Origin: a virus
Lineage: Duplodnaviria; Heunggongvirae; Uroviricota; Caudoviricetes
IMG/VR virus record: IMGVR_UViG_3300045988_091615
Location: 1-25,518 of that record
Strand: one strand, 5' to 3'
DNA: 25,518 bases
In this document: piece by piece, positions 645 through 23,001 of the stretch
Position numbering within the stretch: position 1 is the stretch's first letter
Layout: the number at the start of each line of letters is the position of its first letter
Notes under the pieces: generated by a model
Databases searched by the model: none
Told to the model about the DNA's origin: nothing
What the model saw: only the letters and a program-made list of their open reading frames with translations
Program-made: the position numbers and the translations under genes

Positions 645-916
645 GCATTCGTATTGAAATTGGCGAACGTTATGTGGTTACCAGTGACAGCTTCCAGTTT
701 ATTCTCCACGAGAAAAAGAGAGCGGAAAGCGGTAAAAACGCCGGTCAGGAGTGGCTGGCGGTGGTTGGTTATTACCCGAAATTAAGCCAGCTCGTTTCCG
801 GCCTGATGCATCACGATATTCTGACCGGAAGCGCAAAGTCTTTTGCTGATTTAAACGCGCAGGTTGAGCAACTCAGCAAGCGTTGTTCAGAGGCTTTTGG
901 CTCATATGGCCGTTAA
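641..916 (+). CDS. Hypothetical early-operon protein (91 aa)
   Basis: ATG 641 overlaps the preceding stop. ORF ends TAA 914-916, overlapping the start of gene A. Same orientation and tight coupling as the flanking early genes. Confidence 0.6.
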   Translation: MSIRIEIGERYVVTSDSFQFILHEKKRAESGKNAGQEWLAVVGYYPKLSQLVSGLMHHDILTGSAKSFADLNAQVEQLSKRCSEAFGSYGR

Positions 917-3291: not shown

Positions 3292-4623
3292 ATGAACAAT
3301 AACAGTAAGAAAACTTTGAGTAAGAAAAGAACCAAGAAAGCCAAAAAGAAGTCGCTTACCCCTGAACAAAAAGCATTGCAAGCAGAACAAGCAGCAAAAA
3401 AAGCGCAAATTATAGAGAATAGGCGCTCTATTACAGCTCATGCTATTAATCTTTTTCAGCAATATACAGCACTCCGTAAAAAAGGATTAGATAGTTCCAC
3501 TGCTACTTTGCAAGCTTATGCTGATTATGAAAAAGTACATGGACATAAATTCCTTAGTTCTGTCTCTATGTGGACAAAAATCAAAACTGAAGCAGGGATT
3601 CGGATCTATGATCTTGAGAGACAAGATAGCCGTAAATCGCTTAATCTTGCTAAGATTCCGACCCGTTTAGAGGCTAAGCGTAGTGTACTGACACAGAACC
3701 AAAAGAAAGTACATAACCAGAATGCAAATACATTACGCTTAATCGGTGGCAAAAAGCTACCTGTAACATCTATGGGGCTTATTGTATGCCCTGTCTGCGA
3801 GATACATATAAAAGATAGTGCTATAGAGTGGCATTTACGACACAACCACGTAGATCATGTAGATAACCCGTTTACTAACCCTATAGTAGCTCCTATTGAT
3901 ACCTTAGAAGAGACTGTAGAAATACGTGATCTACTAATTGGTGATAAAACACTTCCGATTAAATCTAGTACTATTAATATGGGGAGTTACAAGAAAGATA
4001 AACGTTATTTTAATAAGCAAGTTTATCAAACGGCATTGCTAACAATGACACAATCAGAAGCGTGGAAACTCGCGACTGATGAAGAATCTAGTATGACTTT
4101 TTTAAGCAATCAGTACATAAGTCCATTAACATCACCCGAACCCAATAATGAAATATCTCTTATCATGGATGGAACGGATATAGCCATTAATGAAAGTCTA
4201 ACTAATCCTTTCAAGGCCGCAAACGATACCTGTGCTACAGGACGAACAGTCGAGGTTACTCACAAAGTCCGTCATGCTGGAGATCAAGCTGATTTCAAAC
4301 GCCGTGTTTGGGATAACTTCAATGGCAGATGTGCTATTACTGGCTATCCATTGCCAGAGGGGATATTGGAAGCCGCACATATTGAAGCAATAACAGAATC
4401 AGCAAATAATAACACATCTAATGGCCTGTTACTTGAAGTAAGTTTACACCGAATGTTTGATAAAGGATTAATGGGGATTAATCCAGAGGACTTAACGGTT
4501 CATTTCTCTATTAATTGTATCCACAAAACTATGTTTGAGGGTAAAACTCTACAACCGCATCATGTAGAACTTGATGCTGGGAAGTTGATGACAAAATGGA
4601 AAAAGTTCCATGATAAGCGTTAA
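3292..4623 (+). CDS. Cargo protein with C-terminal HNH_2-type nuclease domain, internal C2H2-like zinc-finger motif and Lys-rich N-terminus (candidate defence effector)
   Basis: 443-aa ORF, ATG 3292 with AAGG 8 nt upstream, markedly AT-rich. C-terminus carries the HNH_2 signature GRCAITG...EAAHIEA...SNGLLLEVSLHRMFDKG. Mid-protein CPVCEIHIKDSAIEWHLRHNH resembles a C2H2 finger. N-terminal ~45 aa are highly basic (KKTLSKKRTKKAKKK...). Confidence 0.8.
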   Translation: MNNNSKKTLSKKRTKKAKKKSLTPEQKALQAEQAAKKAQIIENRRSITAHAINLFQQYTALRKKGLDSSTATLQAYADYEKVHGHKFLSSVSMWTKIKTEAGIRIYDLERQDSRKSLNLAKIPTRLEAKRSVLTQNQKKVHNQNANTLRLIGGKKLPVTSMGLIVCPVCEIHIKDSAIEWHLRHNHVDHVDNPFTNPIVAPIDTLEETVEIRDLLIGDKTLPIKSSTINMGSYKKDKRYFNKQVYQTALLTMTQSEAWKLATDEESSMTFLSNQYISPLTSPEPNNEISLIMDGTDIAINESLTNPFKAANDTCATGRTVEVTHKVRHAGDQADFKRRVWDNFNGRCAITGYPLPEGILEAAHIEAITESANNNTSNGLLLEVSLHRMFDKGLMGINPEDLTVHFSINCIHKTMFEGKTLQPHHVELDAGKLMTKWKKFHDKR

Positions 4624-4714: not shown

Positions 4715-5134
4715 ATGGTGACGCTTGATATGGTTTATTGGAAATTTGGTTATGCTTCGGAAGCAGCTCAATTACTGGAGACTGAGTTGATAAATGTTAT
4801 CACTGAGTATGATATGAGTCAGGGGAAAGATATACAGTCGCTGAAAAAACAGTTTTTAGAAATGGATAAATACACGCTGGGTAAATTGAATTACGCACTG
4901 AAGTCTAGGATGGTGGAGGATGCTGATACACTGGAGTATGTGTCAGATGCTCTTAAAGCCAGAAACTACTTGGCACATGATTTTTTTCGCGCTCATAATT
5001 TTGCCAAAGATACCCCAGCAGGACGGCAAAAAATGCTTGATGATTTACAAAAAACACACAACATTATTTTTGAGGCATACCGGAAAGTACTGCTAATTAG
5101 TGGCATCAAAATTCCACCTTTAGAAGATGATTAG
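4715..5134 (+). CDS. Small cargo protein (139 aa) with RNxxxH motif; possible HEPN-like RNase or partner/immunity protein
   Basis: ATG 4715 (alternative ATG at 4730), GGGGA 9 nt upstream, AT-rich, co-oriented with the HNH ORF. Contains KARNYLAHDFF, which fits the HEPN Rx4-6H (RNxxxH) signature. A short motif only. Confidence 0.65.
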   Translation: MVTLDMVYWKFGYASEAAQLLETELINVITEYDMSQGKDIQSLKKQFLEMDKYTLGKLNYALKSRMVEDADTLEYVSDALKARNYLAHDFFRAHNFAKDTPAGRQKMLDDLQKTHNIIFEAYRKVLLISGIKIPPLEDD

Positions 5135-5449: not shown

Positions 5450-6484
5450 TCAGCCGTTGTCAGTGTCCAGTGAGTAGTTTTTAAAGCGGATGACCTCCTG
5501 ACCGAGCCAGCCGTTTATCTCGCGGATCCTGTCCTGTAACGGGATAAGCTCATTGCGGACAAAGACCTTTGCCACTTTCTCAATATCACCCAGCGACCCG
5601 ACGTTCTCCGGCTTGCCGCCCATCAACTGAAAGGGGATGCGGTGCGCGTCCAGCAGGTCAGCGGCGCTGGCTTTTTTGATATTAAAAAAATCGTCCTTCG
5701 TTGCCACTTCACTGAGCGGGATAATTTTAATGCCGTCAGCTTTCCCCTGCGGGGCATAGAGAAACAGGTTTTTAAAGTTGTTGCGGCCTTTCGACTTCAC
5801 CATGTTTTCGCGGAGCATTTCGATATCGTTGCGATCCTGCACGGCATCGGTGACGTACATGATGTATCCGGCATGCGCGCCGTTTTCGTAATACTTGCGG
5901 CGGAACAGCGTGGCCGACTCATTCAGCCAGGCAGAGTTAAGGGCGCTGAGATATTCCGGCAGGCCGTACAGCTCCTGATTAATATCCGGCTCCAGCAGGT
6001 GAAACACGGAGCCGGGCGCGAAAGGTGTCGGCTCGTTGAAGGACGGCACCCACCAGTAAACATCCTCTTCCACACCACGGCGGGTATATTTTGCCGGTGA
6101 GGTTTCCAGTCTGATGACCTTACCGGTGGTGCTGTAACGCTTTTCCAGAAACGCATTACCGAACACCAGAAAATCCAGCACAAAGCGGCTGAAATCCTGC
6201 TGGGAAAGCCACGGATGCGGGATAAATGTCGAGGCCAGAATATTACGTTTGACGTAAATCGGTGAGCTGTGATGCACGGCAGCACGCAGGCTTTTTGCCA
6301 GACCGGTAAAGCTGACCGGTGGCTCATACCATCTGCCGTTACTGATGCATTCGACGTAATCCAGAATGTCACGGCGGTCGAGTACCGGCACCGGCTCACC
6401 AAAGGTGAATGCCTCCATTTTCGGGGCGCTGGTGGTCATTGTTTTTGCCGCAGGTTGCGGTGTTTTCCCTTTTTTCTTGCTCAT
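5450..6484 (-). CDS. Q: Portal protein, P2 gpQ family
   Basis: 344 aa, the same length I recall for P2 Q, and recognisable as P2 portal sequence. Its ATG overlaps the P stop by one base (ATGA). Confidence 0.9.
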   Translation of the reverse strand: MSKKKGKTPQPAAKTMTTSAPKMEAFTFGEPVPVLDRRDILDYVECISNGRWYEPPVSFTGLAKSLRAAVHHSSPIYVKRNILASTFIPHPWLSQQDFSRFVLDFLVFGNAFLEKRYSTTGKVIRLETSPAKYTRRGVEEDVYWWVPSFNEPTPFAPGSVFHLLEPDINQELYGLPEYLSALNSAWLNESATLFRRKYYENGAHAGYIMYVTDAVQDRNDIEMLRENMVKSKGRNNFKNLFLYAPQGKADGIKIIPLSEVATKDDFFNIKKASAADLLDAHRIPFQLMGGKPENVGSLGDIEKVAKVFVRNELIPLQDRIREINGWLGQEVIRFKNYSLDTDNG

Positions 6485-8256
6485 CAGTAAAACTCCAGAA
6501 TGGTGGATGTCAGCGGGGTGCTGATACCGGCGGTGAGTGGCTCATTTAACAGGGCGTGCATGGTCGCCCAGGCGAGGTCGGCATGGCTGGCTTCCTCGCT
6601 GCGGCTGGCCTCATAGGTGGCGCTGCGTCCGCTGCTGGTCATGGTCTTGCGGATAGCCATAAACGAGCTGGTGATGTCGGTGGCGCTGACGTCATATTCC
6701 AGACAGCCACGGCGAATAACGTCTTTTGCCTTGAGCACCATTGCGGTTTTCATTTCCGGCGTGTAGCGGATATCGCGCGCGGCGGGATAGAACGAGCGAA
6801 CGAGCTGGAACACGCCGACACCGAGGCCGGTGGCATCAATTCCGATGTATTCGACGTTGTATTTTTCGGTGAGTTTGCGGATGGATTCAGCCTGGGTGGC
6901 AAAGTCCATGCCTTTCCACTGGTGACGCTCAAGTATTCTGAATTTGCCACCGGCCACCACCGGCGGTGCCAGCACCACGCATCCGGCACTGTCGCCACGG
7001 TGTGACGGGTCGTAACCAATCCATACCGGACGTGAGCCGAACGGATTGGCGGCAAACGGCGCATAGTCTTCCCATTCTTCCAGCGTGTCGACCATGCAGC
7101 GTTGCAGATCCTCGAACGGGAACACCGACGCCTTGTCGTCAACAAATTCACACATGAACAGGTTTTTAAAATCGTCGGCGCTGTTTTCACGTTTGAGCTG
7201 CTCAATGTCGAACAGTGTGCAGCCACCTTTCAGGGCATCCTCAATGGTGACAATCTGCCGCCACTGGCCGTCCGCACAGAGAAGACCACCGGCAAGGGCG
7301 TTATGACTGACGTCGATTTCCACGCGTTCGGCGGCGCTGGCGCGTCCCCGGTTGAACAGTTCACCTGACCAGAACGGGTAGGCGTCGTGCGCCAGCGTGG
7401 ACGGGGTGGAGAAATAGGTCGAGCGCAGGTGACTCTGTGAGGCCATACCTGATGCTACCTTACGCAGTACCTGAAAATTCGGGATCCAGAAAATCTCGTC
7501 GACGTACAGGTCGCCGTTATGGCTCTGTGCGGTGTTGGAGTTGGTGCCGAGAAAAATCAGTTTTGCACCGTTATTGCCCAGGACAATCGGGTCACCGGTC
7601 AGGTCAACGTCAACCAGACGGGCAAAGGCGATGATGTATTCGCGGAACACATACGCCTGCGTTTTACTGGCCGACAGAAAAATCTGGTTATGGCCGGTTT
7701 TCAGGGCACGCAGCAGCGCCTCGCGGGAAAAATAAAACGTCGCGCCAATCTGGCGGGATTTCAGGATATCGCGGATGCGGTGCTCAAGCCCGGCGCGATA
7801 CCAGTGCAACTGATAGTCGAAAGACTGCTCAAAGAAAATCTGCTCCAGCTTTTCGATGGCCTCGTCACTGAAAAAATTCTTTTTCGGTTTGCGACGCCCG
7901 CCTTTGTTGCGGTTAGCGACGTTCGGATTAAGGTCTGCCTCGTTGCCGGTCTGACTGTAACGGTTTACCCGTGCCAGTCGTTCAATCTGGCGTCCCAGCA
8001 GGTCAATTTCCTTGAAGTCACCGCCGGTTTTCTGCGGTTTGATGATGAGCTGGGTCAGCCGCGCTTCCAGACTCATTTCGACACGGCTGATGGGGGCAAC
8101 GCTGTCCCAGCCGTCGCGCTGTTTCCAGCTCTGCACCGTCGGGCGTTTCATCTGCAACATGGCGGCAATCTGCGGCACGGAAAACCCCTGCCAGTACAGC
8201 AGCGCCGCCTGACGACGCGGGTCGTGTAAAAGAGTGGTGTCTGTGGTGATGGTCAT
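6484..8256 (-). CDS. P: Terminase large (ATPase) subunit, P2 gpP family
   Basis: Large minus-strand ORF. Likely start is the ATG ending at 8256 (MTITTDTTLL...), giving 590 aa; the ORF-track start at 8286 adds 10 residues. Position immediately upstream of Q and divergent from O as in P2. Confidence 0.9.
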   Translation of the reverse strand: MTITTDTTLLHDPRRQAALLYWQGFSVPQIAAMLQMKRPTVQSWKQRDGWDSVAPISRVEMSLEARLTQLIIKPQKTGGDFKEIDLLGRQIERLARVNRYSQTGNEADLNPNVANRNKGGRRKPKKNFFSDEAIEKLEQIFFEQSFDYQLHWYRAGLEHRIRDILKSRQIGATFYFSREALLRALKTGHNQIFLSASKTQAYVFREYIIAFARLVDVDLTGDPIVLGNNGAKLIFLGTNSNTAQSHNGDLYVDEIFWIPNFQVLRKVASGMASQSHLRSTYFSTPSTLAHDAYPFWSGELFNRGRASAAERVEIDVSHNALAGGLLCADGQWRQIVTIEDALKGGCTLFDIEQLKRENSADDFKNLFMCEFVDDKASVFPFEDLQRCMVDTLEEWEDYAPFAANPFGSRPVWIGYDPSHRGDSAGCVVLAPPVVAGGKFRILERHQWKGMDFATQAESIRKLTEKYNVEYIGIDATGLGVGVFQLVRSFYPAARDIRYTPEMKTAMVLKAKDVIRRGCLEYDVSATDITSSFMAIRKTMTSSGRSATYEASRSEEASHADLAWATMHALLNEPLTAGISTPLTSTILEFY

Positions 8257-8429: not shown

Positions 8430-9284
8430 ATGGCAAAAAAAGTCTCAAAATTCTTTCGTATCGGCGTTGAGGGTGACACCTGTGACGGGCGTGTCATCAG
8501 TGCGCAGGATATTCAGGAAATGGCCGAAACCTTTGACCCGCGTGTCTATGGTTGCCGCATTAACCTGGAACATCTGCGCGGCATCCTGCCTGACGGTATT
8601 TTTAAGCGTTATGGTGATGTGGCCGAACTGAAGGCCGAAAAGATTGACGATGATTCGGCGCTGAAAGGCAAATGGGCGCTGTTTGCGAAAATCACCCCGA
8701 CCGATGACCTTATCGCGATGAACAAGGCCGCGCAGAAGGTCTACACCTCAATGGAAATTCAGCCGAACTTTGCCAACACCGGCAAATGTTATCTGGTGGG
8801 GCTGGCCGTCACCGATGACCCGGCAAGCCTCGGCACGGAATACCTGGAATTCTGCCGCACGGCAAAACACAACCCTCTGAACCGCTTCAAATTAAGCTCT
8901 GAAAACCTGATTTCAGTGGCAACGCCCGTTGAGCTGGAATTTGAAGACCTGCCTGAAACCGTGTTCACCGCCCTGACCGAAAAGGTGAAATCCATTTTTG
9001 GCCGCAAACAGGCCAGCGATGACGCCCGTCTGAATGACGTGCATGAAGCGGTGACCGCTGTTGCTGAACATGTGCAGGAAAAACTGAGCGCCACTGAGCA
9101 GCGCCTCGCTGAGATGGAAACTGCCTTTTCCGCTCTTAAGCAGGAGGTGACTGACAGGGCGGATGAAACCAGCCAGGCATTCACCCGCCTGAAAAACAGT
9201 CTCGACCACACCGAAAGTCTGACCCAGCAGCGCCGCAGCAAGGCCACCGGTGGTGGCGGTGACGCCCTGATGACGAACTGCTGA
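8430..9284 (+). CDS. O: Capsid scaffolding protein, P2 gpO family
   Basis: Start ATG 8430 (MAKKVSKFF...) with AGGA 9 nt upstream gives 284 aa; the ORF-track start at 8364 is an upstream extension. First gene of the O-N-M-L block, divergent from P. Confidence 0.88.
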   Translation: MAKKVSKFFRIGVEGDTCDGRVISAQDIQEMAETFDPRVYGCRINLEHLRGILPDGIFKRYGDVAELKAEKIDDDSALKGKWALFAKITPTDDLIAMNKAAQKVYTSMEIQPNFANTGKCYLVGLAVTDDPASLGTEYLEFCRTAKHNPLNRFKLSSENLISVATPVELEFEDLPETVFTALTEKVKSIFGRKQASDDARLNDVHEAVTAVAEHVQEKLSATEQRLAEMETAFSALKQEVTDRADETSQAFTRLKNSLDHTESLTQQRRSKATGGGGDALMTNC

Positions 9285-9342
9285 CCGGCGTCAGTCAGTC
9301 CGGGAAAACCTTCACGATTAACCCTTAATTTCAGGAAAAACT

Positions 9343-10416
9343 ATGCGCCAGGAAACCCGCTTTAAATTTAATGCCTACCTGTCCCGTGTTGCCGAACTGA
9401 ACGGCATCGACGCCGGTGATGTGTCGAAAAAATTCACCGTTGAACCGTCGGTCACCCAGACCCTGATGAACACCATGCAGGAGTCCTCTGACTTTCTGAC
9501 CCGCATCAACATTGTGCCGGTCAGCGAAATGAAAGGGGAAAAAATTGGTATTGGTGTCACCGGCTCCATCGCCAGCACCACCGACACCGCCGGTGGCACC
9601 GAGCGTCAGCCGAAGGACTTCTCGAAGCTGGCGTCAAACAAGTACGAATGCGACCAGATTAACTTCGATTTTTATATCCGCTACAAAACGCTTGACCTGT
9701 GGGCGCGTTATCAGGATTTCCAGCTCCGTATCCGTAACGCCATTATCAAACGCCAGTCCCTTGATTTAATCATGGCCGGTTTTAACGGCGTGAAGCGTGC
9801 CGAAACCTCTGACCGCAGCAGCAATCCGATGCTGCAGGATGTGGCAGTCGGCTGGCTGCAGAAATACCGCAATGAAGCCCCGGCGCGCGTGATGAGCAAG
9901 GTTACTGACGAGGAAGGCCGCACCACCTCTGAGGTTATCCGCGTGGGTAAGGGCGGTGATTATGCCAGCCTTGATGCACTGGTGATGGATGCGACCAACA
10001 ACCTGATTGAGCCGTGGTATCAGGAAGACCCTGACCTTGTGGTGATTGTGGGGCGTCAGCTACTGGCGGACAAGTATTTCCCCATCGTCAACAAGGAGCA
10101 GGACAACAGCGAAATGCTGGCCGCTGACGTCATCATCAGCCAGAAACGCATCGGTAACCTGCCGGCGGTACGCGTCCCGTACTTCCCGGCGGATGCGATG
10201 CTCATCACGAAGCTGGAAAACCTGTCCATCTACTACATGGATGACAGCCATCGCCGCGTGATTGTGGAAAACCCGAAACTCGACCGCGTGGAGAACTACG
10301 AGTCAATGAACATTGATTACGTGGTGGAAGACTACGCCGCCGGTTGTCTGGTGGAAAAAATCAGGGTCGGTGATTTCTCCACACCGGCTAAGGCGACCGC
10401 AGAGCCGGGAGCGTAA
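9343..10416 (+). CDS. N: Major capsid protein, P2 gpN family
   Basis: 357 aa, AGGA upstream of ATG 9343. Translation (MRQETRFKFNAYLSRVAELNG...) recognisable as P2-type major capsid protein. Confidence 0.92.
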   Translation: MRQETRFKFNAYLSRVAELNGIDAGDVSKKFTVEPSVTQTLMNTMQESSDFLTRINIVPVSEMKGEKIGIGVTGSIASTTDTAGGTERQPKDFSKLASNKYECDQINFDFYIRYKTLDLWARYQDFQLRIRNAIIKRQSLDLIMAGFNGVKRAETSDRSSNPMLQDVAVGWLQKYRNEAPARVMSKVTDEEGRTTSEVIRVGKGGDYASLDALVMDATNNLIEPWYQEDPDLVVIVGRQLLADKYFPIVNKEQDNSEMLAADVIISQKRIGNLPAVRVPYFPADAMLITKLENLSIYYMDDSHRRVIVENPKLDRVENYESMNIDYVVEDYAAGCLVEKIRVGDFSTPAKATAEPGA

Positions 10417-10419
10417 CCG

Positions 10420-11157
10420 ATGACGAGTCCCGCACAGCGCCACATGATGCGGGTCTCGGCAGCGATGACCGCGCAGCGGGAAGCCGCCCCGCTGCGACAT
10501 GCAACTGTCTATGAGCAGATGCTGGTCAAGCTGGCCGCAGACCAGCGCACACTGAAAGCGATTTATTCAAAAGAGCTGAAGGCCGCGAAAAAACGCGAAC
10601 TGCTGCCGTTCTGGTTGCCGTGGGTGAACGGCGTGCTGGAGCAGGGCAAAGGTGCACAGGATGACATTCTGATGACGGTCATGCTGTGGCGTCTGGATAC
10701 CGGCGATATTGCCGGTGCGCTGGAGATTGCCCGTTATGCCCTGAAGTACGGTCTGACCATGCCGGGTAAACACCGCCGTACCCCGCCGTACATGTTCACC
10801 GAGGAGGTGGCGCTTGCGGCCATGCGCGCTCACGCTGCCGGTGAGTCTGTGGATCCCCGCCTGCTGACGGACACCCTTGAACTGACCGCCACGGCTGACA
10901 TGCCTGATGAAGTGCGCGCAAAGCTGCACAAAATCACCGGTCTGTTTCTGCGTGACGGTGGTGATGCCGCAGGTGCGCTGGCACACCTGCAACGTGCGAC
11001 ACAGCTCGACTGTCAGGCAGGCGTCAAAAAAGAGATTGAACGACTGGAGCGGGAGCTGAAACCGAAGCCGGAGCCAAAAGCGGTCACCCGCGCCCCGCGT
11101 AAGACCCGGAGTGCGACACCGGCAAAACGTGGACGCCCGAAAAAGAAAGCCAGTTAA
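10420..11157 (+). CDS. M: Terminase small (endonuclease) subunit, P2 gpM family
   Basis: 245 aa ORF starting 4 nt after the N stop, with a basic C-terminal tail (KTRSATPAKRGRPKKKAS), in the position of P2 M. Confidence 0.85.
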   Translation: MTSPAQRHMMRVSAAMTAQREAAPLRHATVYEQMLVKLAADQRTLKAIYSKELKAAKKRELLPFWLPWVNGVLEQGKGAQDDILMTVMLWRLDTGDIAGALEIARYALKYGLTMPGKHRRTPPYMFTEEVALAAMRAHAAGESVDPRLLTDTLELTATADMPDEVRAKLHKITGLFLRDGGDAAGALAHLQRATQLDCQAGVKKEIERLERELKPKPEPKAVTRAPRKTRSATPAKRGRPKKKAS

Positions 11158-13748: not shown

Positions 13749-14178
13749 TGCCGTCACGGTGCTGAAAACTAACCCCGAGATGCTGCGGATATTCGTGGAT
13801 AACGGGAGTATTGCCTCCACGCTGGCGGCGTCGTTGTCATTCGAAAAGCGTTACACGCTCAATGTCATTGTGACCGACTTTACCGGTGATTTTGACCTGC
13901 TCATTGTGCCGGTGCTGGCGTGGCTGCGGGAAAATCAGCCCGACATCATGACCACCGACGCAGGCCAGAAAAAGGGCTTCACGTTTTATGCAGACATCAA
14001 CAATGACAGCAGCTTTGATATCAGCATCAGCCTGATGCTGACCGAGCGCACGCTGGTCAGTGAGGTGGACGGCGCGCTGCATGTGAAGAATATCCCGGAA
14101 CCCCCGCCGCCGGAGCCGGTCAACCGCCCGATGGAGCTTTATATCAATGGCGAACTGGTGAGCAAGTGGGATGAATGA
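13711..14178 (+). CDS. R: Tail completion protein, P2 gpR family
   Basis: 155 aa, matching P2 R length and position. Confidence 0.85.
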   Translation: MLKPDSLRRALTDAVTVLKTNPEMLRIFVDNGSIASTLAASLSFEKRYTLNVIVTDFTGDFDLLIVPVLAWLRENQPDIMTTDAGQKKGFTFYADINNDSSFDISISLMLTERTLVSEVDGALHVKNIPEPPPPEPVNRPMELYINGELVSKWDE

Positions 14179-14623
14179 GTTTAAGCGTTTTGAAGACCGG
14201 CTGACCGGACTGATTGAATCGCTGTCACCGTCAGGGCGTCGGCGACTGAGTGCCGAACTGGCGAAACGTCTGCGGCAGAGTCAGCAGCGTCGGGTGATGG
14301 CTCAGAAAGCCCCCGACGGCACACCCTACGCACCACGCCAGCAGCAGAGCGCCAGAAAAAAGACCGGTCGTGTTAAGCGAAAAATGTTTGCGAAACTTAT
14401 CACCAGTCGTTTTTTGCATATCCGCGCCAGCCCGGAACAGGCATCAATGGAATTTTACGGCGGGAAGTCGCCGAAAATCGCCAGTGTGCATCAGTTCGGT
14501 CTGTCGGAAGAAACCCGGAAAGACGGTAAGAAAATTGATTATCCGGCGCGTCCTCTGCTCGGCTTTACCGGTGAGGATGTGCAGATGATTGAAGAGATTA
14601 TCCTGGCTCACCTTGAGCGTTAG
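14171..14623 (+). CDS. S: Tail completion protein, P2 gpS family
   Basis: 150 aa; start overlaps the R stop; matches P2 S length and position. Confidence 0.85.
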   Translation: MNEFKRFEDRLTGLIESLSPSGRRRLSAELAKRLRQSQQRRVMAQKAPDGTPYAPRQQQSARKKTGRVKRKMFAKLITSRFLHIRASPEQASMEFYGGKSPKIASVHQFGLSEETRKDGKKIDYPARPLLGFTGEDVQMIEEIILAHLER

Positions 14624-14694: not shown

Positions 14695-15480
14695 TTATGA
14701 GTGATTTTTATTTGATGCTTTGTATTCTAAAACCTTCTTATTGGCGTAAAAGAATTTTGTATATGACAGGAATATAACCAGACCTGAAGTGAAATAGACG
14801 AGGGATAGTATTAATAATGCTTTTTTGTGACTGTTATTATCTTTAATCTCCTGGCTTAACCATTCGGAGTCCTCCTCGTTTAGCTGTAAGAGCTTATTGC
14901 AGGCGATCTCAGGAAGTGTGTCTTTTATAAATACGTTTCGTAGCCTCTTGCAATCGGCAAGGCTATAAGTTTTATTGAATTCAACTGTTTTATTGTTGAA
15001 GGATAAAAGAACTTTGTCACTATAAACATAGTACATCATATTTTTATATGGTATGCCTATGGCATCTCTTACTATAGCGGATTGTTTGTTGTGTATATAA
15101 CATGCGAGGAGAATGTAAAAAATACTGGCCAGAATTACAATTATTGTTTTAATTATGTGTGGTGGTTTTGTTATGTCACCCCAGATGCGAGTAAGGAAAA
15201 AATACGATGTTTTTAGTTTTCCATCAATCAGTCCCTGCTGTATCATTCTCACATTTTCAATGCCTGATACATTGATTCCGTTAATTATTTTAAATAGTTG
15301 AATGTCGCGCCACTCGCGGTCAAGTCTTTTTAATTTTTTGTCTGAATATCCAAAATTGAAATAATGTGCAATAAGCCTCATAAGGTTACTTTTACCAAAG
15401 CTAAAAAATGCTAATACTGCAAAGCTACAAAGGAAAAAAACGATTAGCCCCCACACATTAGTCACATTATAGCTGACCAT
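14695..15480 (-). CDS. Cargo: predicted three-helix membrane protein (261 aa), unknown function
   Basis: Minus-strand ORF with a strong RBS (AAGGAG 6 nt upstream of the ATG ending at 15480), very AT-rich. Three hydrophobic stretches (VWGLIVFFLCSFAVLAFFSF; IIKTIIVILASIFYILLACYI; ALLILSLVYFTSGLVIFLSY). Inserted in opposite orientation between S and V. Confidence 0.8.
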   Translation of the reverse strand: MVSYNVTNVWGLIVFFLCSFAVLAFFSFGKSNLMRLIAHYFNFGYSDKKLKRLDREWRDIQLFKIINGINVSGIENVRMIQQGLIDGKLKTSYFFLTRIWGDITKPPHIIKTIIVILASIFYILLACYIHNKQSAIVRDAIGIPYKNMMYYVYSDKVLLSFNNKTVEFNKTYSLADCKRLRNVFIKDTLPEIACNKLLQLNEEDSEWLSQEIKDNNSHKKALLILSLVYFTSGLVIFLSYTKFFYANKKVLEYKASNKNHS

Positions 15481-15563
15481 TACGCTCTCCTTGAATGTTG
15501 TCTGGTAGTTCTACAAATGAATCCAGATAGCATAACTTTTATATATTGTGCAATCTCACATGC

Positions 15564-16199
15564 ATGAACACTCTCGCAAATATTCAGGAACTCGCGCGCG
15601 CACTGCGCAACATGATTCGCACCGGCATTATCGTCGAAACCGACCTTAACGCCGGTCGCTGCCGTGTGCAGACCGGCGGCATGTGCACTGACTGGCTTCA
15701 GTGGCTGACCCATCGTGCCGGTCGTTCGCGCACATGGTGGGCACCTTCCGTGGGGGAGCAGGTGCTGATTCTGGCCGTGGGCGGTGAACTCGACACGGCG
15801 TTCGTTCTGCCGGGGATTTATTCCGGCGATAACCCCTCGCCGTCTGTGTCGGCGGATGCCCTGCATATCCGTTTCCCTGACGGGGCGGTGATTGAATATG
15901 AACCCGAAACCAGTGCACTCACGGTAAGCGGAATTAAAACGGCCAGCGTGACGGCTTCTGATTCTGTTACTGCCACGGTGCCGGTGGTCATGGTGAAAGC
16001 ATCAACCCGCGTCACCCTGGACACCCCGGAGGTGGTCTGCACCAACAGGCTGATTACCGGCACGCTGGAAGTGCAGAAGGGCGGGACGATGCGCGGCAAC
16101 ATTGAACACACCGGCGGTGAACTCTCATCAAACGGTAAGGTACTGCATACCCATAAACACCCCGGCGACAGCGGCGGCACAACCGGGAGTCCTTTATGA
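15564..16199 (+). CDS. V: Baseplate assembly/spike protein, P2 gpV family
   Basis: ATG 15564 gives 211 aa (MNTLANIQELARALRNMIRTG...); the track start at 15546 is a TTG. Stop overlaps the W start (ATGA). Confidence 0.88.
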   Translation: MNTLANIQELARALRNMIRTGIIVETDLNAGRCRVQTGGMCTDWLQWLTHRAGRSRTWWAPSVGEQVLILAVGGELDTAFVLPGIYSGDNPSPSVSADALHIRFPDGAVIEYEPETSALTVSGIKTASVTASDSVTATVPVVMVKASTRVTLDTPEVVCTNRLITGTLEVQKGGTMRGNIEHTGGELSSNGKVLHTHKHPGDSGGTTGSPL

Positions 16200-17986: not shown

Positions 17987-19996
17987 ATGAGCACGAAATT
18001 TAAAACCGTTATCACCACTGCCGGTGCAGCAAAGCTGGCAGCGGCAACCGCGCCGGGAGGGCGGAAGGTCAACATTACCACGATGGCCGTCGGGGATGGC
18101 GGTGGTAAATTGCCTGTCCCGGATGCCGGACAGACCGGGCTTATCCACGAAGTCTGGCGACATGCGCTGAACAAAATCAGCCAGGACAAACGAAACAGTA
18201 ATTATATTATCGCAGAGCTGGTTATTCCGCCGGAGGTGGGCGGTTTCTGGATGCGTGAGCTTGGCCTGTACGATGATGCTGGAACGTTAATTGCCGTGGC
18301 GAACATGGCCGAAAGTTATAAGCCAGCTCTTGCCGAAGGCTCAGGGCGTTCGCAGACCTGTCGCATGGTCATCATCGTCAGCAGTGTGGCCTCAGTGGAG
18401 CTGACCATTGACACCACAACGGTGATGGCGACGCAGGATTACGTTGATGACAAAATTGCAGAACATGAACAGTCACGACGTCACCCGGACGCCTCGCTGA
18501 CCGCAAAAGGTTTTACTCAGTTAAGCAGTGCGACCAACAGCACGTCTGAAACACTGGCCGCAACGCCGAAAGCGGTAAAGGCCGCGTATGACCTGGCTAA
18601 CGGGAAATATACCGCACAGGACGCCACCACAGCGCGAAAAGGCCTTGTCCAGCTCAGTAGTGCCACCAACAGCACGTCTGAAACGCTCGCCGCAACACCA
18701 AAAGCCGTTAAGACGGTAATGGATGAAACGAACAAAAAAGCGCCATTAAACAGCCCTGCACTGACCGGAACGCCAACGACGCCAACTGCGCGACAGGGAA
18801 CGAATAATACTCAGATCGCAAACACGGCTTTCGTTATGGCCGCGATTGCCGCCCTTGTAGACTCGTCGCCTGACGCACTGAATACGCTGAACGAGCTGGC
18901 GGCGGCGCTGGGCAATGACCCGAATTTTGCTACCACCATGACTAATGCGCTTGCGGGTAAGCAACCGAAAGATGCCACTTTGACGGCGCTGGCGGGGCTT
19001 GCTACTGCGGCAGACAGGTTTCCGTATTTTACGGGGAATGATGTTGCCAGCCTGGCGACCCTGACAAAAGTCGGGCGGGATATTCTGGCTAAATCGACCG
19101 TTGCCGCCGTTATCGAATATCTCGGTTTACAGGAAACGGTAAACCGAGCCGGGAACGCCGTGCAAAAAAATGGCGATACCTTGTCCGGTGGACTTACTTT
19201 TGAAAACGACTCAATCCTTGCCTGGATTCGAAATACTGACTGGGCGAAGATTGGATTTAAAAATGATGCCGATGGTGACACTGATTCATACATGTGGTTT
19301 GAAACGGGGGATAACGGCAATGAATATTTCAAATGGAGAAGCCGCCAGAGTACCACAACAAAAGACCTGATGACGTTGAAATGGGATGCACTAAATATTC
19401 TTGTTAATGCCGTCATTAATGGCTGTTTTGGAGTTGGTACGACGAATGCACTAGGTGGTAGCTCAATTGTTCTTGGTGATAATGATACCGGATTTAAACA
19501 GAATGGAGACGGTATTCTTGATGTTTATGCTAACAGTCAGCGAGTATTCCGTTTTCAGAATGGAGTGGCTATTGCTTTTAAAAATATTCAGGCAGGGGAT
19601 AGTAAAAAGTTCTCGCTATCCAGCTCTAACACATCCACGAAGAATATTACCTTTAATTTATGGGGTGCTTCCACCCGTCCAGTGGTTGCAGAGTTAGGCG
19701 ATGAGGCCGGATGGCATTTCTATAGCCAGCGAAATACAGATAACTCGGTAATATTTGCTGTTAACGGTCAGATGCAACCCAGCAACTGGGGGAATTTTGA
19801 TTCCCGCTATGTGAAAGATGTTCGCCTGGGTACGCGAGTTGTTCAATTGATGGCGCGAGGTGGTCGTTATGAAAAAGCCGGACACACGATTACCGGATTA
19901 AGAATCATTGGTGAAGTGGATGGCGATGATGAAGCCATCTTCAGGCCGATACAAAAATACATCAATGGCACATGGTATAACGTTGCGCAGGTGTAA
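17987..19996 (+). CDS. H: Tail fibre protein, P2 gpH family, with AT-rich C-terminal receptor-binding region
   Basis: 669 aa. N-terminal part is GC-rich P2-like; it contains tandem phage-tail-fibre repeats (QLSSATNSTSETLAATPKAVK twice). From about 19150 onward the composition drops to ~40% G+C, suggesting an exchanged distal module. Confidence 0.9.
   Translation: MSTKFKTVITTAGAAKLAAATAPGGRKVNITTMAVGDGGGKLPVPDAGQTGLIHEVWRHALNKISQDKRNSNYIIAELVIPPEVGGFWMRELGLYDDAGTLIAVANMAESYKPALAEGSGRSQTCRMVIIVSSVASVELTIDTTTVMATQDYVDDKIAEHEQSRRHPDASLTAKGFTQLSSATNSTSETLAATPKAVKAAYDLANGKYTAQDATTARKGLVQLSSATNSTSETLAATPKAVKTVMDETNKKAPLNSPALTGTPTTPTARQGTNNTQIANTAFVMAAIAALVDSSPDALNTLNELAAALGNDPNFATTMTNALAGKQPKDATLTALAGLATAADRFPYFTGNDVASLATLTKVGRDILAKSTVAAVIEYLGLQETVNRAGNAVQKNGDTLSGGLTFENDSILAWIRNTDWAKIGFKNDADGDTDSYMWFETGDNGNEYFKWRSRQSTTTKDLMTLKWDALNILVNAVINGCFGVGTTNALGGSSIVLGDNDTGFKQNGDGILDVYANSQRVFRFQNGVAIAFKNIQAGDSKKFSLSSSNTSTKNITFNLWGASTRPVVAELGDEAGWHFYSQRNTDNSVIFAVNGQMQPSNWGNFDSRYVKDVRLGTRVVQLMARGGRYEKAGHTITGLRIIGEVDGDDEAIFRPIQKYINGTWYNVAQV
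18518..18712 (+). repeat. Tandem in-frame 63-nt tail-fibre repeat units (period 132 nt) inside H
   Basis: Unit 18518-18580 and unit 18650-18712 are ~80% identical at nucleotide level and encode the same 21-aa motif. Consistent with the phage tail-fibre repeat family (Pfam Phage_fiber_2, as I recall). Confidence 0.8.
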
Positions 19997-19999
19997 GTT

Positions 20000-20527
20000 A
20001 TGCAGCATTTAAAGAACATTAAGTCAGGTAATCCAAAAACAAAAGAGCAATATCAGCTAACAAAGAATTTTGATGTTATCTGGTTATGGTCCGAAGACGG
20101 AAAAAACTGGTATGAGGAAGTGAAGAACTTTCAGCCAGACACAATAAAGATTGTTTACGATGAAAATAATATTATTGTCGCTATCACCAGAGATGCTTCA
20201 ACGCTTAATCCTGAAGGTTTTAGCGTTGTTGAGGTTCCTGATATTACCTCCAACCGACGTGCTGACGACTCAGGTAAATGGATGTTTAAGGATGGTGCTG
20301 TGGTTAAACGGATTTATACGGCAGATGAACAGCAACAACAGGCGGAATTACAGAAGGCAGCTTTGCTTTCCGAAGCTGAATCCGTAATTTTGCCGCTGGA
20401 GCGCGCTGTCAGGCTGAATATGGCAACAGATGAGGAACGCAGCCGACTGGAAGCATGGGAACGCTACAGCGTTCTGGTCAGTCGTGTGGATCCTGCAAAT
20501 CCTGAATGGCCGGAAATGCCACAATAA
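20000..20527 (+). CDS. G: Tail fibre assembly chaperone, P2 gpG / Tfa family
   Basis: 175 aa, ATG 4 nt after the H stop, AT-rich like the H C-terminus. Typical Tfa position and size. Confidence 0.85.
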
Positions 20528-20588
20528 GCTGTATAAACTCTGGTGTGAGCTCACATATCTATAACACAGAGTAACCCCTAATCTGACA

Positions 20589-20612
20589 GTCCGCTCTGTG
20601 CCAAGAGCGGAC
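20589..20612. other. Stable hairpin downstream of G (9-bp stem, 6-nt loop); not a canonical intrinsic terminator
   Basis: GTCCGCTCT (20589-20597) / AGAGCGGAC (20604-20612). No U-tract follows on either strand. Confidence 0.4.
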
Positions 20613-20717
20613 ATTGATAACATCAAGGCTCTCTGGTCAGAGGGGCTCAGGTCATTTACAGCATACAAAGAAAAAATTGAAATATTTTTCAAATAAACAC
20701 ATTGCAGGGCTTAGGCC

Positions 20718-21488
20718 TTACTCTTTAGCTCGTTTGGTCATCTCATTTGCTAACTGTGTAGACCAATAATGTTGACTCTTTGCTTCTAATATGAAAAGTA
20801 GCGCTCTCACACATTGTAGCTGAGCATGCACATAAGCATGAATATTACCAACTGAAGTAGGAACTAAGTGGGTTTCAGGTGTGTAGTAGTGGTAGATGCT
20901 CGTTTGTGAAGGATGAACATATTCGCTAAGTATGTCATAAGTCAGTTCAAAATCACTTTCCATCTGATTAGTCTGCTTCATCTCATCTTTATAGAGTTCG
21001 CGTAAAGCAGTCATCACATGCATACTGACAGCAAGTAGGTTTTCAAAACGATATTTAGCCTCCTCAGTAAACATGTAGTCGTTCGGGTCAAATACTCCTT
21101 TCTGAATCTTTTCTTGCTCTGACTTTTTAAATCGAGAACTATTCGTAAAGTTCAATATAACTTCGATAGCGTTATCTACACTTGCGTGGCCATTTTGGGT
21201 AGTCAAAATTTTCTCTACTTTCTTGTTTAAGAGTCGTGAGAAGGCATGAGTTTCAATCATTCCTCGGCTAACAATACAAGCGCTTTGGTATCGTTCGTTT
21301 TCGAGGAGGAGAAGCGCATCATCGAAGATGTCTATCTGCCTGTTCATAAGTAAATTGGCATAATTAACGAGATACAGTCCGCGGTCAGGGTTATGTGTTT
21401 TTTCGACAATTACACCATTAGTCTTGCTCAGCGCAGCTCTGGCGGCTTTTGCCTCATTCAGTCTCTGTTCTATAAGTTCTTTATACAT
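20718..21488 (-). CDS. Cargo: hypothetical soluble protein (256 aa), unknown function, at the P2 Z/fun position
   Basis: Minus-strand ORF, AAGGA upstream of the ATG ending at 21488, AT-rich, opposite orientation to the flanking G and FI. No domain recognised. Contains an Rx5H stretch (SRGMIETH), which is too loose to call HEPN. Confidence 0.8.
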   Translation of the reverse strand: MYKELIEQRLNEAKAARAALSKTNGVIVEKTHNPDRGLYLVNYANLLMNRQIDIFDDALLLLENERYQSACIVSRGMIETHAFSRLLNKKVEKILTTQNGHASVDNAIEVILNFTNSSRFKKSEQEKIQKGVFDPNDYMFTEEAKYRFENLLAVSMHVMTALRELYKDEMKQTNQMESDFELTYDILSEYVHPSQTSIYHYYTPETHLVPTSVGNIHAYVHAQLQCVRALLFILEAKSQHYWSTQLANEMTKRAKE

Positions 21489-21687
21489 GCTTTGTTTCCT
21501 TACAGGAGGATGTGTATCAACGAATAATCATTCCGCCTTTTGTCAGCTTGACTGTAAGGTATCATGCTGAAGTTAGCCATACAAAGCTCTGCCCATTATC
21601 AGTTTACCCAAAGCAGACTGTCAGATTTGATAGCGTTTGGGCTATGTAAATTGTCAGTCGGAAAATGAGTGAGTACAAATCAGGACA

Positions 21688-21716
21688 GGCGGGCGAATTG
21701 CCCGCCTTTTCTTTAT
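21688..21716 (+). terminator. Rho-independent terminator on the plus strand upstream of FI
   Basis: GGCGGGC (21688-21694) - GAATT - GCCCGCC (21700-21706) followed by TTTTCTTTAT. Canonical GC-rich stem plus U-tract on the plus strand only. Confidence 0.65.
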
Positions 21717-21810
21717 CTGTTGTTTCATCCACTGACCAGCCAGGTCAAATAGCGTCTCATGCACTGCCCAACAGAAAATAGTTGCACCCATTAACCACGG
21801 AGTTAAACGG

Positions 21811-23001
21811 ATGAGTGACTATCATCACGGCGTGCAGGTGCTGGAGATTAACGACGGCACCCGCGTCATTTCCACCGTATCCACTGCCGTTGTCGGCATG
21901 GTCTGTACGGCTAGCGATGCGGATGCGGAAACCTTCCCCCTCAATAAACCTGTGCTGATTACCAATGTGCAGAGCGCAATTGCAAAGGCCGGTAAAAAAG
22001 GCACGCTGGCGGCATCGTTGCAGGCCATCGCCGACCAGTCAAAACCGGTCACCGTTGTCGTGCGTGTGGAAGACGGCACCGGTGACGACGAGGAAACGAA
22101 ACTCGCGCAGACCGTTTCCAATATCATCGGCACCACCGACGAAAACGGTCAGTACACCGGACTGAAAGCCCTGCTGGCGGCAGAGTCGGTAACCGGTGTT
22201 AAACCGCGTATTCTCGGCGTGCCGGGACTGGACACCAAAGAGGTGGCTGTTGCACTGGCATCAGTCTGTCAGAAGCTGCGCGCTTTCGGGTATATCAGCG
22301 CATGGGGCTGTAAGACTATTTCCGAGGTGAAAGCCTACCGCCAGAATTTCAGCCAGCGTGAGCTGATGGTCATCTGGCCGGATTTCCTCGCATGGGATAC
22401 GGTCACCAGTACCACCGCCACCGCGTATGCCACCGCCCGTGCGCTGGGTCTGCGCGCTAAAATCGACCAGGAGCAGGGCTGGCATAAAACGCTGTCCAAT
22501 GTCGGGGTGAACGGTGTTACCGGCATCAGCGCATCCGTCTTCTGGGATTTGCAGGAGTCCGGCACCGATGCTGACCTGCTTAACGAGTCAGGCGTCACTA
22601 CGCTGATTCGCCGCGACGGTTTCCGCTTCTGGGGTAACCGTACCTGCTCCGATGACCCGCTGTTCCTCTTTGAAAACTACACCCGCACCGCGCAGGTGCT
22701 GGCCGACACGATGGCTGAGGCGCACATGTGGGCGGTGGACAAGCCCATCACTGCAACGCTGATTCGCGACATCGTTGACGGCATCAATGCCAAATTCCGT
22801 GAGCTGAAAACAAACGGCTATATCGTGGATGCGACCTGCTGGTTCAGCGAAGAATCCAACGATGCGGAAACCCTCAAGGCCGGAAAACTGTATATCGACT
22901 ATGACTATACCCCGGTGCCTCCTCTCGAAAACCTGACCCTGCGCCAGCGTATTACTGATAAATATCTGGCAAATCTGGTCACCTCGGTTAACAGCAATTA
23001 A
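21811..23001 (+). CDS. FI: Contractile tail sheath protein, P2 gpFI family
   Basis: 396 aa, matching P2 FI length; followed by the tail tube gene. Confidence 0.92.
   Translation: MSDYHHGVQVLEINDGTRVISTVSTAVVGMVCTASDADAETFPLNKPVLITNVQSAIAKAGKKGTLAASLQAIADQSKPVTVVVRVEDGTGDDEETKLAQTVSNIIGTTDENGQYTGLKALLAAESVTGVKPRILGVPGLDTKEVAVALASVCQKLRAFGYISAWGCKTISEVKAYRQNFSQRELMVIWPDFLAWDTVTSTTATAYATARALGLRAKIDQEQGWHKTLSNVGVNGVTGISASVFWDLQESGTDADLLNESGVTTLIRRDGFRFWGNRTCSDDPLFLFENYTRTAQVLADTMAEAHMWAVDKPITATLIRDIVDGINAKFRELKTNGYIVDATCWFSEESNDAETLKAGKLYIDYDYTPVPPLENLTLRQRITDKYLANLVTSVNSN

Follow-up and report, generated by a model that had tools for sequence, protein, structure and literature searches.

What is the gene that stands, turned against its neighbours, between the tail genes G and FI of this phage DNA, and what might its product do? 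The stretch that we analysed, called the window below, is 25,518 nucleotides long, and an earlier note made from its letters had taken the G–FI interval for the Z/fun hotspot of P2 and for a place where related phages swap cargo. As to its kind the gene is ordinary; in detail it is uncharacterised. We propose that a P2-like E. coli prophage took up, at its Z/fun hotspot, a single-gene cassette which consists of a leader, the coding sequence of this gene and a decayed terminator.

Cargo and backbone between G and FI

The interval and its flanks contain the following elements:

20000–20527, plus strand: G, tail-fibre assembly protein, left flank of the hotspot (Pfam Caudo_TAP, E 1.5e-36)
20589–20612, no strand assigned: backbone hairpin GTCCGCTCT-gtgcca-AGAGCGGAC, 9-bp perfect stem, downstream of G
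20617–21608, no strand assigned: cargo-specific insert (blastn and short-word blastn against P2-like phages with other cargo)
21687–21717, plus strand: intrinsic terminator of the backbone, its 9-bp stem (7 of the pairs GC) followed by a T-run (terminator scan)
21811–23001, plus strand: FI, tail sheath protein, right flank of the hotspot (Pfam Phage_sheath_1, Phage_sheath_1C and Gp18_domIII_N)

The Pfam matches (Caudo_TAP and the tail sheath families) show that G and FI had been named correctly, and the description of the interval (20528–21810) as AT-rich agrees with the 39.6% GC of the insert. In reference P2 the same place is occupied, in the same opposite orientation, by fun(Z), which bears out the hotspot assignment. 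P2 Fun(Z) is a T5-exclusion lysogenic-conversion gene that runs against the late operons; it is non-essential cargo, and the same backbone terminator and pF region flank the window gene. The two products differ in length (528 aa for Fun(Z) versus 256 aa here), and homology to Fun(Z) (NP_046777) was rejected at an hhalign probability of 0.3%, so that no T5-exclusion phenotype can be transferred to the window protein.

Mapping of the breakpoints by blastn of the G–FI interval against loci L003–L006, together with short-word blastn, revealed that the left flank ceases to be homologous to P2-like phages of different cargo at 20603–20625, and that homology returns at 21609 on the right. Unrelated cargo is found between the same breakpoints in related phages (Wphi orf44, a SMEK-domain gene, a metal-binding-domain gene and a 175-aa hypothetical), just as expected of a cargo-swap site, and the interval thus combines a variable gene with conserved backbone joints, which is what identifies cargo of the Z/fun hotspot. 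The ORF had also been described as flanked by hairpins. Two clear hairpins do exist, at 20589–20612 and 21687–21707, but both are part of the conserved P2 backbone and not of the cargo. The left one, which has no U-tract, is kept in P2-like phages with different cargo (L003, L006, L023 and, in part, L004/L005), lies where the V-operon terminator is annotated after G in P2, and marks the left recombination joint of the hotspot. The right one is the hairpin of the plus-strand terminator, sits at the right hotspot edge upstream of the pF region, and is conserved in P2 itself and in L001.

The cargo gene has 39.4% GC (GC3 37.7%), compared with 56.7% (GC3 68.3%) for FI and 52.3% for the whole window, and by this measure the cargo is foreign in composition. 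When alleles were compared across G–FI loci, as the earlier note had proposed, this insert appeared in 4 of the 2,104 flank-matching E. coli complete genomes. The coding sequence can be 100% identical where the surrounding backbone is 2–3% diverged, and L021 and L022 combine the same cargo with another G/H allele. From these sequence comparisons, horizontally acquired cargo appears to us a very secure description of the interval gene.

Related copies are found well beyond this site. One lies at G–FI in L023 (84% identity) and one at the S–V hotspot in L024 (82%); in L014 a 186-like prophage has a copy at its end, directly downstream of the integrase; further copies occupy lambdoid prophage ends and a 30-kb plasmid, and in L002 the gene is part of an IS3-flanked E. 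coli island that retains P2 flank sequence. Judging from these positions, the cassette seems to move among at least three P2-type hotspots, lambdoid prophages, small plasmids and chromosomal islands. A MAFFT alignment suggested that the 3' flank of distant copies (L008, L016 and L017) is also the P2 backbone hairpin; blastn did not support this, and among these copies P2 flank sequence occurs only in the island copy L002. A tblastn search with the window protein found the gene in none of the 50,697 deposited phage records, P2 included. The window has a second minus-strand cargo ORF of unknown function (14695–15480), for which no paralogy with the G–FI gene was found.

The cassette and its expression signals

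Within and around the insert the following features belong to, or were considered for, the cassette:

20690–20714, minus strand: remnant of the cassette's intrinsic terminator, directly 3' of the stop codon
20718–21488, minus strand: DUF5677-family coding sequence, 256 aa, stop codon included in the coordinates, ATG start (ORF list)
21489–21571, minus strand: leader travelling with the gene, kept in 7 loci
21497–21502, minus strand: Shine-Dalgarno TAAGGA, 8 nt 5' of the ATG (read off the sequence)
21595–21624, minus strand: promoter-like site CTGACA-18-GATAAT, 10/12 matches (consensus scan)

The minus-strand ORF with its own ribosome-binding site, reported earlier, is confirmed by the ATG start and by TAAGGA, the latter kept in 6 of 7 aligned leaders. 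Since the gene is oriented against the late operons, it could be expressed on its own in the lysogen. The leader is conserved in seven loci from six genera and in seven different contexts, and the sequence further upstream is context-specific; the leader presumably comprises promoter, 5'UTR and RBS. It is ~95 nt long in relatives, and the window allele has lost 16 nt of it by an internal deletion. Conservation does not extend to homologues below ~70% identity, and the leaders of distant homologues are unrelated. No consensus RNA structure was found in the leader, as RNAalifold gave zero pairs and the single-sequence z-scores of −0.1 and −1.7 were non-significant. A hairpin that would sequester the RBS (21493–21505 with 21552–21564) is absent from L002, L007 and L008 and was treated as chance, and an Rfam scan of the G–FI interval returned no family at E≤1.

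The promoter-like site at 21595–21624 is a weak candidate promoter: it straddles the insert boundary and is not conserved in cassette copies at other loci. Promoter-like sites numbered 2 against a shuffled expectation of 2.8, and terminator-like sites 2 against 1.2, neither being above the shuffles. Downstream of the gene, intact cassette terminators form hairpins in L002 (AAGCCC..GGGCTT followed by a T-run), in L018 (AAGCCCCT..AGGGGCTT) and, similarly, in L016. The corresponding sequence in the window and in L001 is AAGCCCTGCAATG, then a three-position gap and TGTTT, so that a 3-nt deletion has cost the window allele the 3' arm.

Could the ORF then be a chance reading frame, or a functionless pseudogene in decay? 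The 3-nt terminator deletion and the 16-nt leader deletion of this allele would fit decay, as would its rarity in E. coli. The frame is nevertheless intact over its full length and colinear with 108 homologues from Enterobacterales, Pseudomonas, Vibrio and Xanthomonadales; dN/dS against homologues is 0.12–0.32, that is, purifying selection; the exact window protein is present on 203 contigs; and the AF2 model is confident (pLDDT 92, pTM 0.88). A chance ORF is effectively refuted by this conservation, and we regard a gene without function as extremely improbable.

Membership in DUF5677

No domain had been recognised in the protein earlier, which turned out to be wrong. It matches Pfam DUF5677 (PF18928), a family of unknown function, with 39.0 bits (E 1.1e-9) against a gathering cut-off of 27.1 bits, residues 43–202 aligning with positions 3–159 of the 166-position profile. 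All 47 of 47 subfamily members match DUF5677 as well, and hhalign of the subfamily profile (A1) with that of the minimal ~220-aa DUF5677 clade (A6) gave 99.5% probability and E 2.7e-22 over 198 columns. On this sequence evidence, membership in DUF5677 is virtually certain. The subfamily is compact (16 clusters at E<1e-30 among 1.84 billion representatives). It shares with the family the invariant R...E and YxxLSExxHP motifs, and differs from it in an extra insert of ~30 residues (~121–151) and in an invariant NSSRxK...Q motif of its own. Across the family, all 40 sequences compared have R75, Y184, E189 and H192, and 38 of them have E79.

Defence databases, a check that had been proposed earlier, gave for their PADLOC part no known defence model: no PADLOC-DB v2 family was hit by the window protein at E≤10, and there was likewise no match in PHROGs or NCBIfam. 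Relatives produced only scattered single PADLOC matches at E>0.004. A homologue with 87% identity carries the UniRef label 'HEPN domain-containing protein'.

Predicted fold and comparison with HEPN proteins

The protein has a mass of 29.7 kDa, a mildly acidic pI of 6.2 and zero transmembrane segments, which together with the AF2 model supports the earlier view of a soluble, helical protein. The model suggests a HEPN-like four-helix bundle as the probable fold, with additional predicted elements (a helix at the N-terminus, a helical insert that separates core helices 2 and 3, and a beta-hairpin ahead of the final helix). A minimal DUF5677 member of 217 aa has the same predicted topology. The best structural match of the model is the HEPN-T protein AF0298 (PDB 2hsb), the structure with which AbiV was grouped by Anantharaman 2013. 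The window protein differs from AF0298-type HEPN-T in having no MNT partner and no AbiTii fusion and in being about twice the size of a minimal HEPN domain. Foldseek, which the earlier note had suggested, found nothing significant in PDB or BFVD, and sequence searches of PDB with three profiles yielded only noise, with no similarity to any PDB HEPN chain.

Where are the invariant residues located in such a bundle? H192, itself invariant, follows the predicted helix 179–189, and we infer that it shares the end of core helix 3, the usual place of the HEPN Rx4-6H motif, with E189 and Y184. E79 is on predicted helix 67–97, core helix 2, as placed by secondary-structure order and not by coordinates; in the same mapping R75 would join E79 on core helix 2 and R50 would be on core helix 1. 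The Rx4-6H motif itself is absent, as positions −4 to −6 of H192 are S188, L187 and I186 (−7 being D185), none of them basic. HEPN families which keep the H and lack the R, namely Parep1/8 and c2405, are still predicted to be active (Anantharaman 2013). They possess an invariant His at the HEPN motif position, with an acidic residue conserved on core helix 2 and conserved basic residues elsewhere, and the predicted mapping would give the same pattern here. The family-invariant residues may represent a non-canonical active site, in which the His at the canonical position would be complemented by arginine and glutamate from core helices 1–2 or from the insert.

The closest comparison with a known abortive-infection protein is with lactococcal AbiV (HEPN_AbiV, PF18728), a HEPN RNase that cleaves rRNA and is the toxin in an abortive-infection system of the type III toxin-antitoxin kind. 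The published order of its secondary-structure elements is the same as that predicted for the window protein. HEPN_AbiV is the only non-DUF5677 family matched by more than one of the 40 members: 3 of the 40, all distant, match it weakly (best E 0.009; the one examined scored 14 bits versus a cut-off of 27.1). Neither the window protein nor the other 46 subfamily members match HEPN_AbiV, the PADLOC AbiV model found none, and profile searches with A2 and A6 reached only DUF5677 proteins and no AbiV. The active sites would differ as well. In AbiV the catalytic R91-x5-H97 (RNHKSKH-type) is found in a flexible, lysine-rich insert after core helix 2, whereas the window protein has its invariant His at the end of core helix 3 and is acidic, not lysine-rich. 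An AbiV-type Rx5H is absent, since NSSRxK (residues 116–121 of the protein, in the insert) has no His 4–6 residues later, and no more than 22 of 40 family members have R or K as the basic residue of this site. AbiV, furthermore, requires the upstream abiV2 RNA with its protein-binding hairpin. Such an RNA antitoxin was considered here and rejected: the leader is kept in close relatives, yet a consensus structure is lacking, and the leaders of distant homologues bear no relation to it.

Possible roles of the gene

What does the gene do, then? Three lines point towards defence: the hotspot position, the defence genes that adjoin copies at other loci, and the predicted similarity in fold to Abi RNases. 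We consider a defence role about evenly balanced. Among the neighbours are RmrT/RmrA in L007, HEC-01B/OLD-TOPRIM in L015, and a retron RT_V, a RES-domain gene and a YaaC-like gene in L024. As neighbours differ in every context, a conserved partner gene was rejected and the gene is solo; no antitoxin partner for a putative toxin was found.

The explanation that we favour, tentatively and at somewhat lower confidence than defence as such, is a stand-alone HEPN-like abortive-infection gene. Its product would be a stand-alone, probably dimeric HEPN-type RNase; upon infection by another phage it would cleave RNA, translation would stop and the infection would be aborted, protecting the lysogen population and the prophage. 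The RNase mechanism is possible but rather doubtful. We would be similarly cautious about a wider reading, in which DUF5677 might be an unrecognised HEPN branch with a rearranged site, acting as a stand-alone abortive-infection RNase without antitoxin.

The same hotspot and context evidence would equally suit a defence or superinfection-exclusion gene that is not a nuclease, its bundle blocking a phage or host component or serving as a sensor or scaffold, with the R/E/H/Y residues used for dimerisation or ligand binding. The missing canonical HEPN motif and the acidic pI agree with this; the E/K pair that is most conserved on the corresponding helix of AbiV belongs to the dimer interface and is not catalytic, and many HEPN-fold proteins are non-catalytic. 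However, an invariant His that maps exactly to the catalytic His of HEPN enzymes, with a Glu and a Tyr beside it that are invariant too, resembles an active site more than it does an interface, and absence of the R does not prevent other HEPN families from being predicted active. We consider a non-nuclease defence protein rather unlikely. An enzyme of another helical-bundle type, for example a metal-dependent hydrolase or transferase acting through E189-x2-H192 and R75-x3-E79 on a nucleotide or small molecule, is less likely still.

Alternatively, the gene could be a non-defence 'moron', such as a selfish toxin of addiction or stabilisation, a counter-defence gene or a host-fitness factor that uses permissive sites in mobile elements. 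P2-type sites have been described as defence hotspots, and rapid cargo swapping as typical of P2 defence cargo; the Z/fun hotspot has also been described as mixed-purpose, and P2 hotspots host partition systems and toxins. In three loci plasmid-type VapBC and RelB/ParE modules adjoin the gene, no known defence model was matched, and a distant Bacillota DUF5677 ORF was not among the five active candidates when tested against six Enterococcus phages and gave no phage protection. Against this, the gene recurs at P2-like defence hotspots beside bona fide defence genes, a solo gene without cognate antitoxin would make a poor addiction module, and anti-defence genes are rare in P2. A role outside defence seems to us improbable, to about the same degree as defence by a non-nuclease.

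Coming back to the favoured abortive-infection gene, P2-like prophages are a proven anti-phage reservoir, much of whose hotspot cargo is still unannotated, and here a gene is available with a predicted HEPN/AbiV-like fold as a lead and a short list of invariant residues. If it is protective, DUF5677 would earn a name as a family of single-gene defence, one that is widespread in Proteobacteria, and would provide, after AbiV, a second atypical HEPN active site in abortive infection; if the HEPN-branch reading is true, it would represent a new way of building such a site. If it is not protective, the gene could usefully serve as a negative control when guilt-by-association is applied to a hotspot of mixed purpose. 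Its natural history matches that of validated defence cargo, as it is swapped rapidly and occurs in more than one hotspot and in mobile elements of several kinds.

A DUF5677 gene as solo cargo at the Z/fun hotspot

The window is a P2-like prophage (gpA, portal, S, V, W, J, I, H, G, FI and FII), and its interval between G and FI contains only one substantial ORF, arranged as follows.

Layout of the window around the cargo
864-3182, gpA
17987-19996, H
20000-20527, G
20589-20612, backbone hairpin, conserved among P2-like phages
20718-21488, minus strand, sole substantial ORF of the G-FI interval, 256 aa, ATG start
21687-21707, plus strand, backbone terminator, conserved among P2-like phages
21811-23001, FI

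The ORF is preceded by a Shine-Dalgarno sequence (TAAGGA) 8 nt 5' of the ATG and has a GC content of 39.4% (GC3 37.7%) versus 56.7% (GC3 68.3%) in FI, so the coordinates and description in the earlier note, an AT-rich minus-strand gene with its own ribosome-binding site, are correct. That note recognised no domain, but Pfam DUF5677 matches the protein with 39 bits against a cut-off of 27.1. The hairpins that it saw on both sides of the gene do exist as two clear structures, but they are features of the P2-like backbone and not of the cargo. Promoter-like and terminator-like sites are not more frequent than in shuffled sequence.

The interval is indeed the P2 Z/fun locus, as had been proposed: in reference P2 it is occupied, on the opposite strand, by fun(Z), a non-essential lysogenic-conversion gene that blocks T5 when cloned. 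The literature describes this locus as a mixed-purpose diversity hotspot, where defence-like genes and tail-fibre modules are swapped. The window protein shows no homology to Fun(Z). Comparison of G-FI alleles across P2-like phages, which the earlier note had suggested, showed that unrelated genes fill the site: Wphi orf44, a hypothetical of 175 aa, and one gene each with a SMEK domain and with a metal-binding domain. Homology to these phages ends at 20603-20625, inside or just past the backbone hairpin, and restarts at 21609, which delimits a cargo-specific insert of ~20617-21608. Among 2,104 complete E. coli genomes matching the flanks only four have this insert at the site, and four further E. 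coli genomes hold the gene at other places. The hotspot is a textbook one, and databases already list the gene as a DUF; the analysis shows it to be mobile, selectively maintained (dN/dS 0.12-0.32 versus homologues) and solo cargo there.

The gene moves as a cassette

In seven close copies, found in six genera and seven contexts, ~95 nt 5' of the ATG travel with the gene, and beyond this leader the upstream sequence is context-specific in all seven. Relative to copies elsewhere, the window allele lacks 16 nt of the leader (21489-21571). In relatives an intrinsic terminator hairpin lies right behind the stop codon, with arms that vary compensatorily across loci; in the window (20690-20714) and in the compared locus L001 a 3-nt deletion ruins its 3' arm. 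We found no sign of an abiV2-like RNA, as RNAalifold gives the leader no base pairs and the leaders of distant homologues are unrelated. A copy on the E. coli ws5-3 chromosome (locus L002, 6354-10479 of that locus) lies between two IS3 copies in an integrase/H-NS island, with 88% nucleotide identity over the aligned 1.07-kb cassette. P2 flank sequence, with the backbone hairpin, is still attached to it, so this island copy was probably derived from a P2 hotspot.

Further copies of the DUF5677 gene
L023, G-FI hotspot, 84% copy accompanied by one extra ORF
L024 (IMG/VR UViG_3300002464_000036), diverged P2-like phage, 82% copy in its S-V hotspot
L014, 186-like prophage in Klebsiella, directly 3' of its integrase
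L007, accessory end of a lambdoid prophage, Pseudescherichia, adjoining RmrT/RmrA
L008, accessory end of a lambdoid prophage, Providencia
L015, by a P2-type tail cluster and a HEC-01B/OLD-TOPRIM-DUF4276 gene, Pseudomonas
L012, L013 and CP067555, small plasmid-like or phage-like elements, adjoining VapBC or RelB/ParE modules
L010 and L011, transposase-rich islands, Pseudoxanthomonas

In L024 (2469-9065) the S-V interval is a 6-kb island in which a type V retron reverse transcriptase (RT_V, PADLOC 2e-161) and RES-domain and YaaC-like genes flank the copy. L014 has its copy in the int-att interval, which the literature counts as a minor defence hotspot of P2. The neighbours of the L007 copy (9220-11115; RmrA and RmrT, PADLOC 1e-179 and 1e-72) and of the L015 copy (6121-7565) are known or candidate defence genes. 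The spread over P2 hotspots, other prophages, plasmids and cryptic islands matches the pattern that the preprint of Moura de Sousa et al. describes for P2 defence genes that were validated. A conserved partner gene is absent across the ~15 contexts examined.

Recent recombination around the cargo

The backbones of the window and E. coli MFDS1001074 are 2-3% diverged everywhere else, yet 19750-21694 (~1.95 kb), spanning the tip of H, gene G and the DUF5677 gene, is without mismatch. Such identity indicates a recent recombinational transfer of this block and suggests that the receptor-binding module and the cargo moved together recently. This linkage is not obligatory, since in two IMG/VR contigs (L021 and L022) the same cargo, at 98% identity, accompanies a G allele of only 77% identity.

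Downstream, a hypervariable patch at 21716-21784 has 29 differences in 70 nt from L001, which carries the phage P2 allele. The P2 annotation places the pF promoter region and its activator-binding site here, and the window therefore has a different allele of the late-promoter region.

Protein family and predicted fold

The 29.7-kDa protein (pI 6.2) has no membrane segment. Its 108 homologues come from Enterobacterales, Pseudomonas, Vibrio, Xanthomonadales and metagenomes; the subfamily is compact, for an exhaustive profile search returned no more than 62 clusters at 50% identity, of which 16 lie at E<1e-30. The exact protein is present on 203 Escherichia contigs, where its only annotation is DUF5677 or hypothetical. 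R75, Y184, E189 and H192 are invariant in the wider family (40/40 sequences), with E79 (38/40), L187, P193 and R50 near-invariant; the motifs are aR[SG]xxE and YxxLSExxHP, to which the subfamily adds a ~30-residue insert and an invariant NSSRxK...Q motif.

The AlphaFold2 model is confident (pLDDT 92, pTM 0.88) and contains helices 2-18, 38-63 and 67-97, a helical insert 100-173, a helix 179-189 (continuing as 195-202), a beta-hairpin 208-217 and a helix 218-255, and a minimal 217-aa family member is predicted to have the same element order. Weak HEPN_AbiV matches over core helices 1-2 in 3 of the 40 members (the only family besides DUF5677 matched by more than one) and the UniRef title of an 87%-identical homologue, 'HEPN domain-containing protein', independently point toward HEPN. 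H192 directly follows helix 179-189 and E79 sits on helix 67-97; mapped by secondary-structure order, this placement fits the HEPN families Parep1/8 and c2405, which retain the His without the Arg (Anantharaman et al.). A HEPN-like fold of the AbiV/AF0298 type is predicted, with moderate support. Membership of AbiV itself was rejected: the window protein has no HEPN_AbiV or PADLOC match and no Rx5H in the insert, and it is acidic, whereas AbiV is lysine-rich. What is new is the proposed tie between DUF5677 and the structural class of HEPN/AbiV, the delimitation of the cassette and its movement among several hotspots.

Proposed mechanism

We propose that the protein is a dimeric RNase, with a putative site formed from H192, E189 and Y184 together with R75, E79 and R50. 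Three rival readings compete with this one: an exclusion or sensor protein that is not catalytic, a non-defence moron or addiction toxin, and an enzyme of different chemistry. In the lysogen the RNase would be made from the gene's own leader; an infecting phage would activate it, and it would then halt translation, leading to abortive infection. More speculatively, late V-operon transcripts that read through the hairpin, which lacks a U-tract, would run antisense to the gene up to the terminator at 21687-21707 and might silence it once the prophage itself turns lytic. The only experiment on the family is remote and negative: when a DUF5677 ORF from Bacillota was expressed in E. faecalis, it was outside the five candidates that reduced plaquing by six phages. 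The gene can reasonably be regarded as a candidate member of a new single-gene defence family.

Other cargo in the window

The classical P2 old/tin hotspot, between gpA and portal (5450-6484, minus strand), holds other cargo: a 443-aa protein (3292-4623, plus strand) whose C-terminal part is an HNH_2 nuclease domain (Pfam 8e-11; PADLOC 'HNH' 1.9e-11), and after it a 139-aa ORF (4715-5134, plus strand) with no significant match. The prophage may thus have a second candidate defence locus here. A third cargo ORF, of 261 aa and oppositely oriented (14695-15480, minus strand), lies in the gap from S (14171-14623) to V (15546-16199); it has no Pfam or PADLOC match and is unrelated to DUF5677, and E. 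coli MFDS1001074 has it too, as a hypothetical protein.
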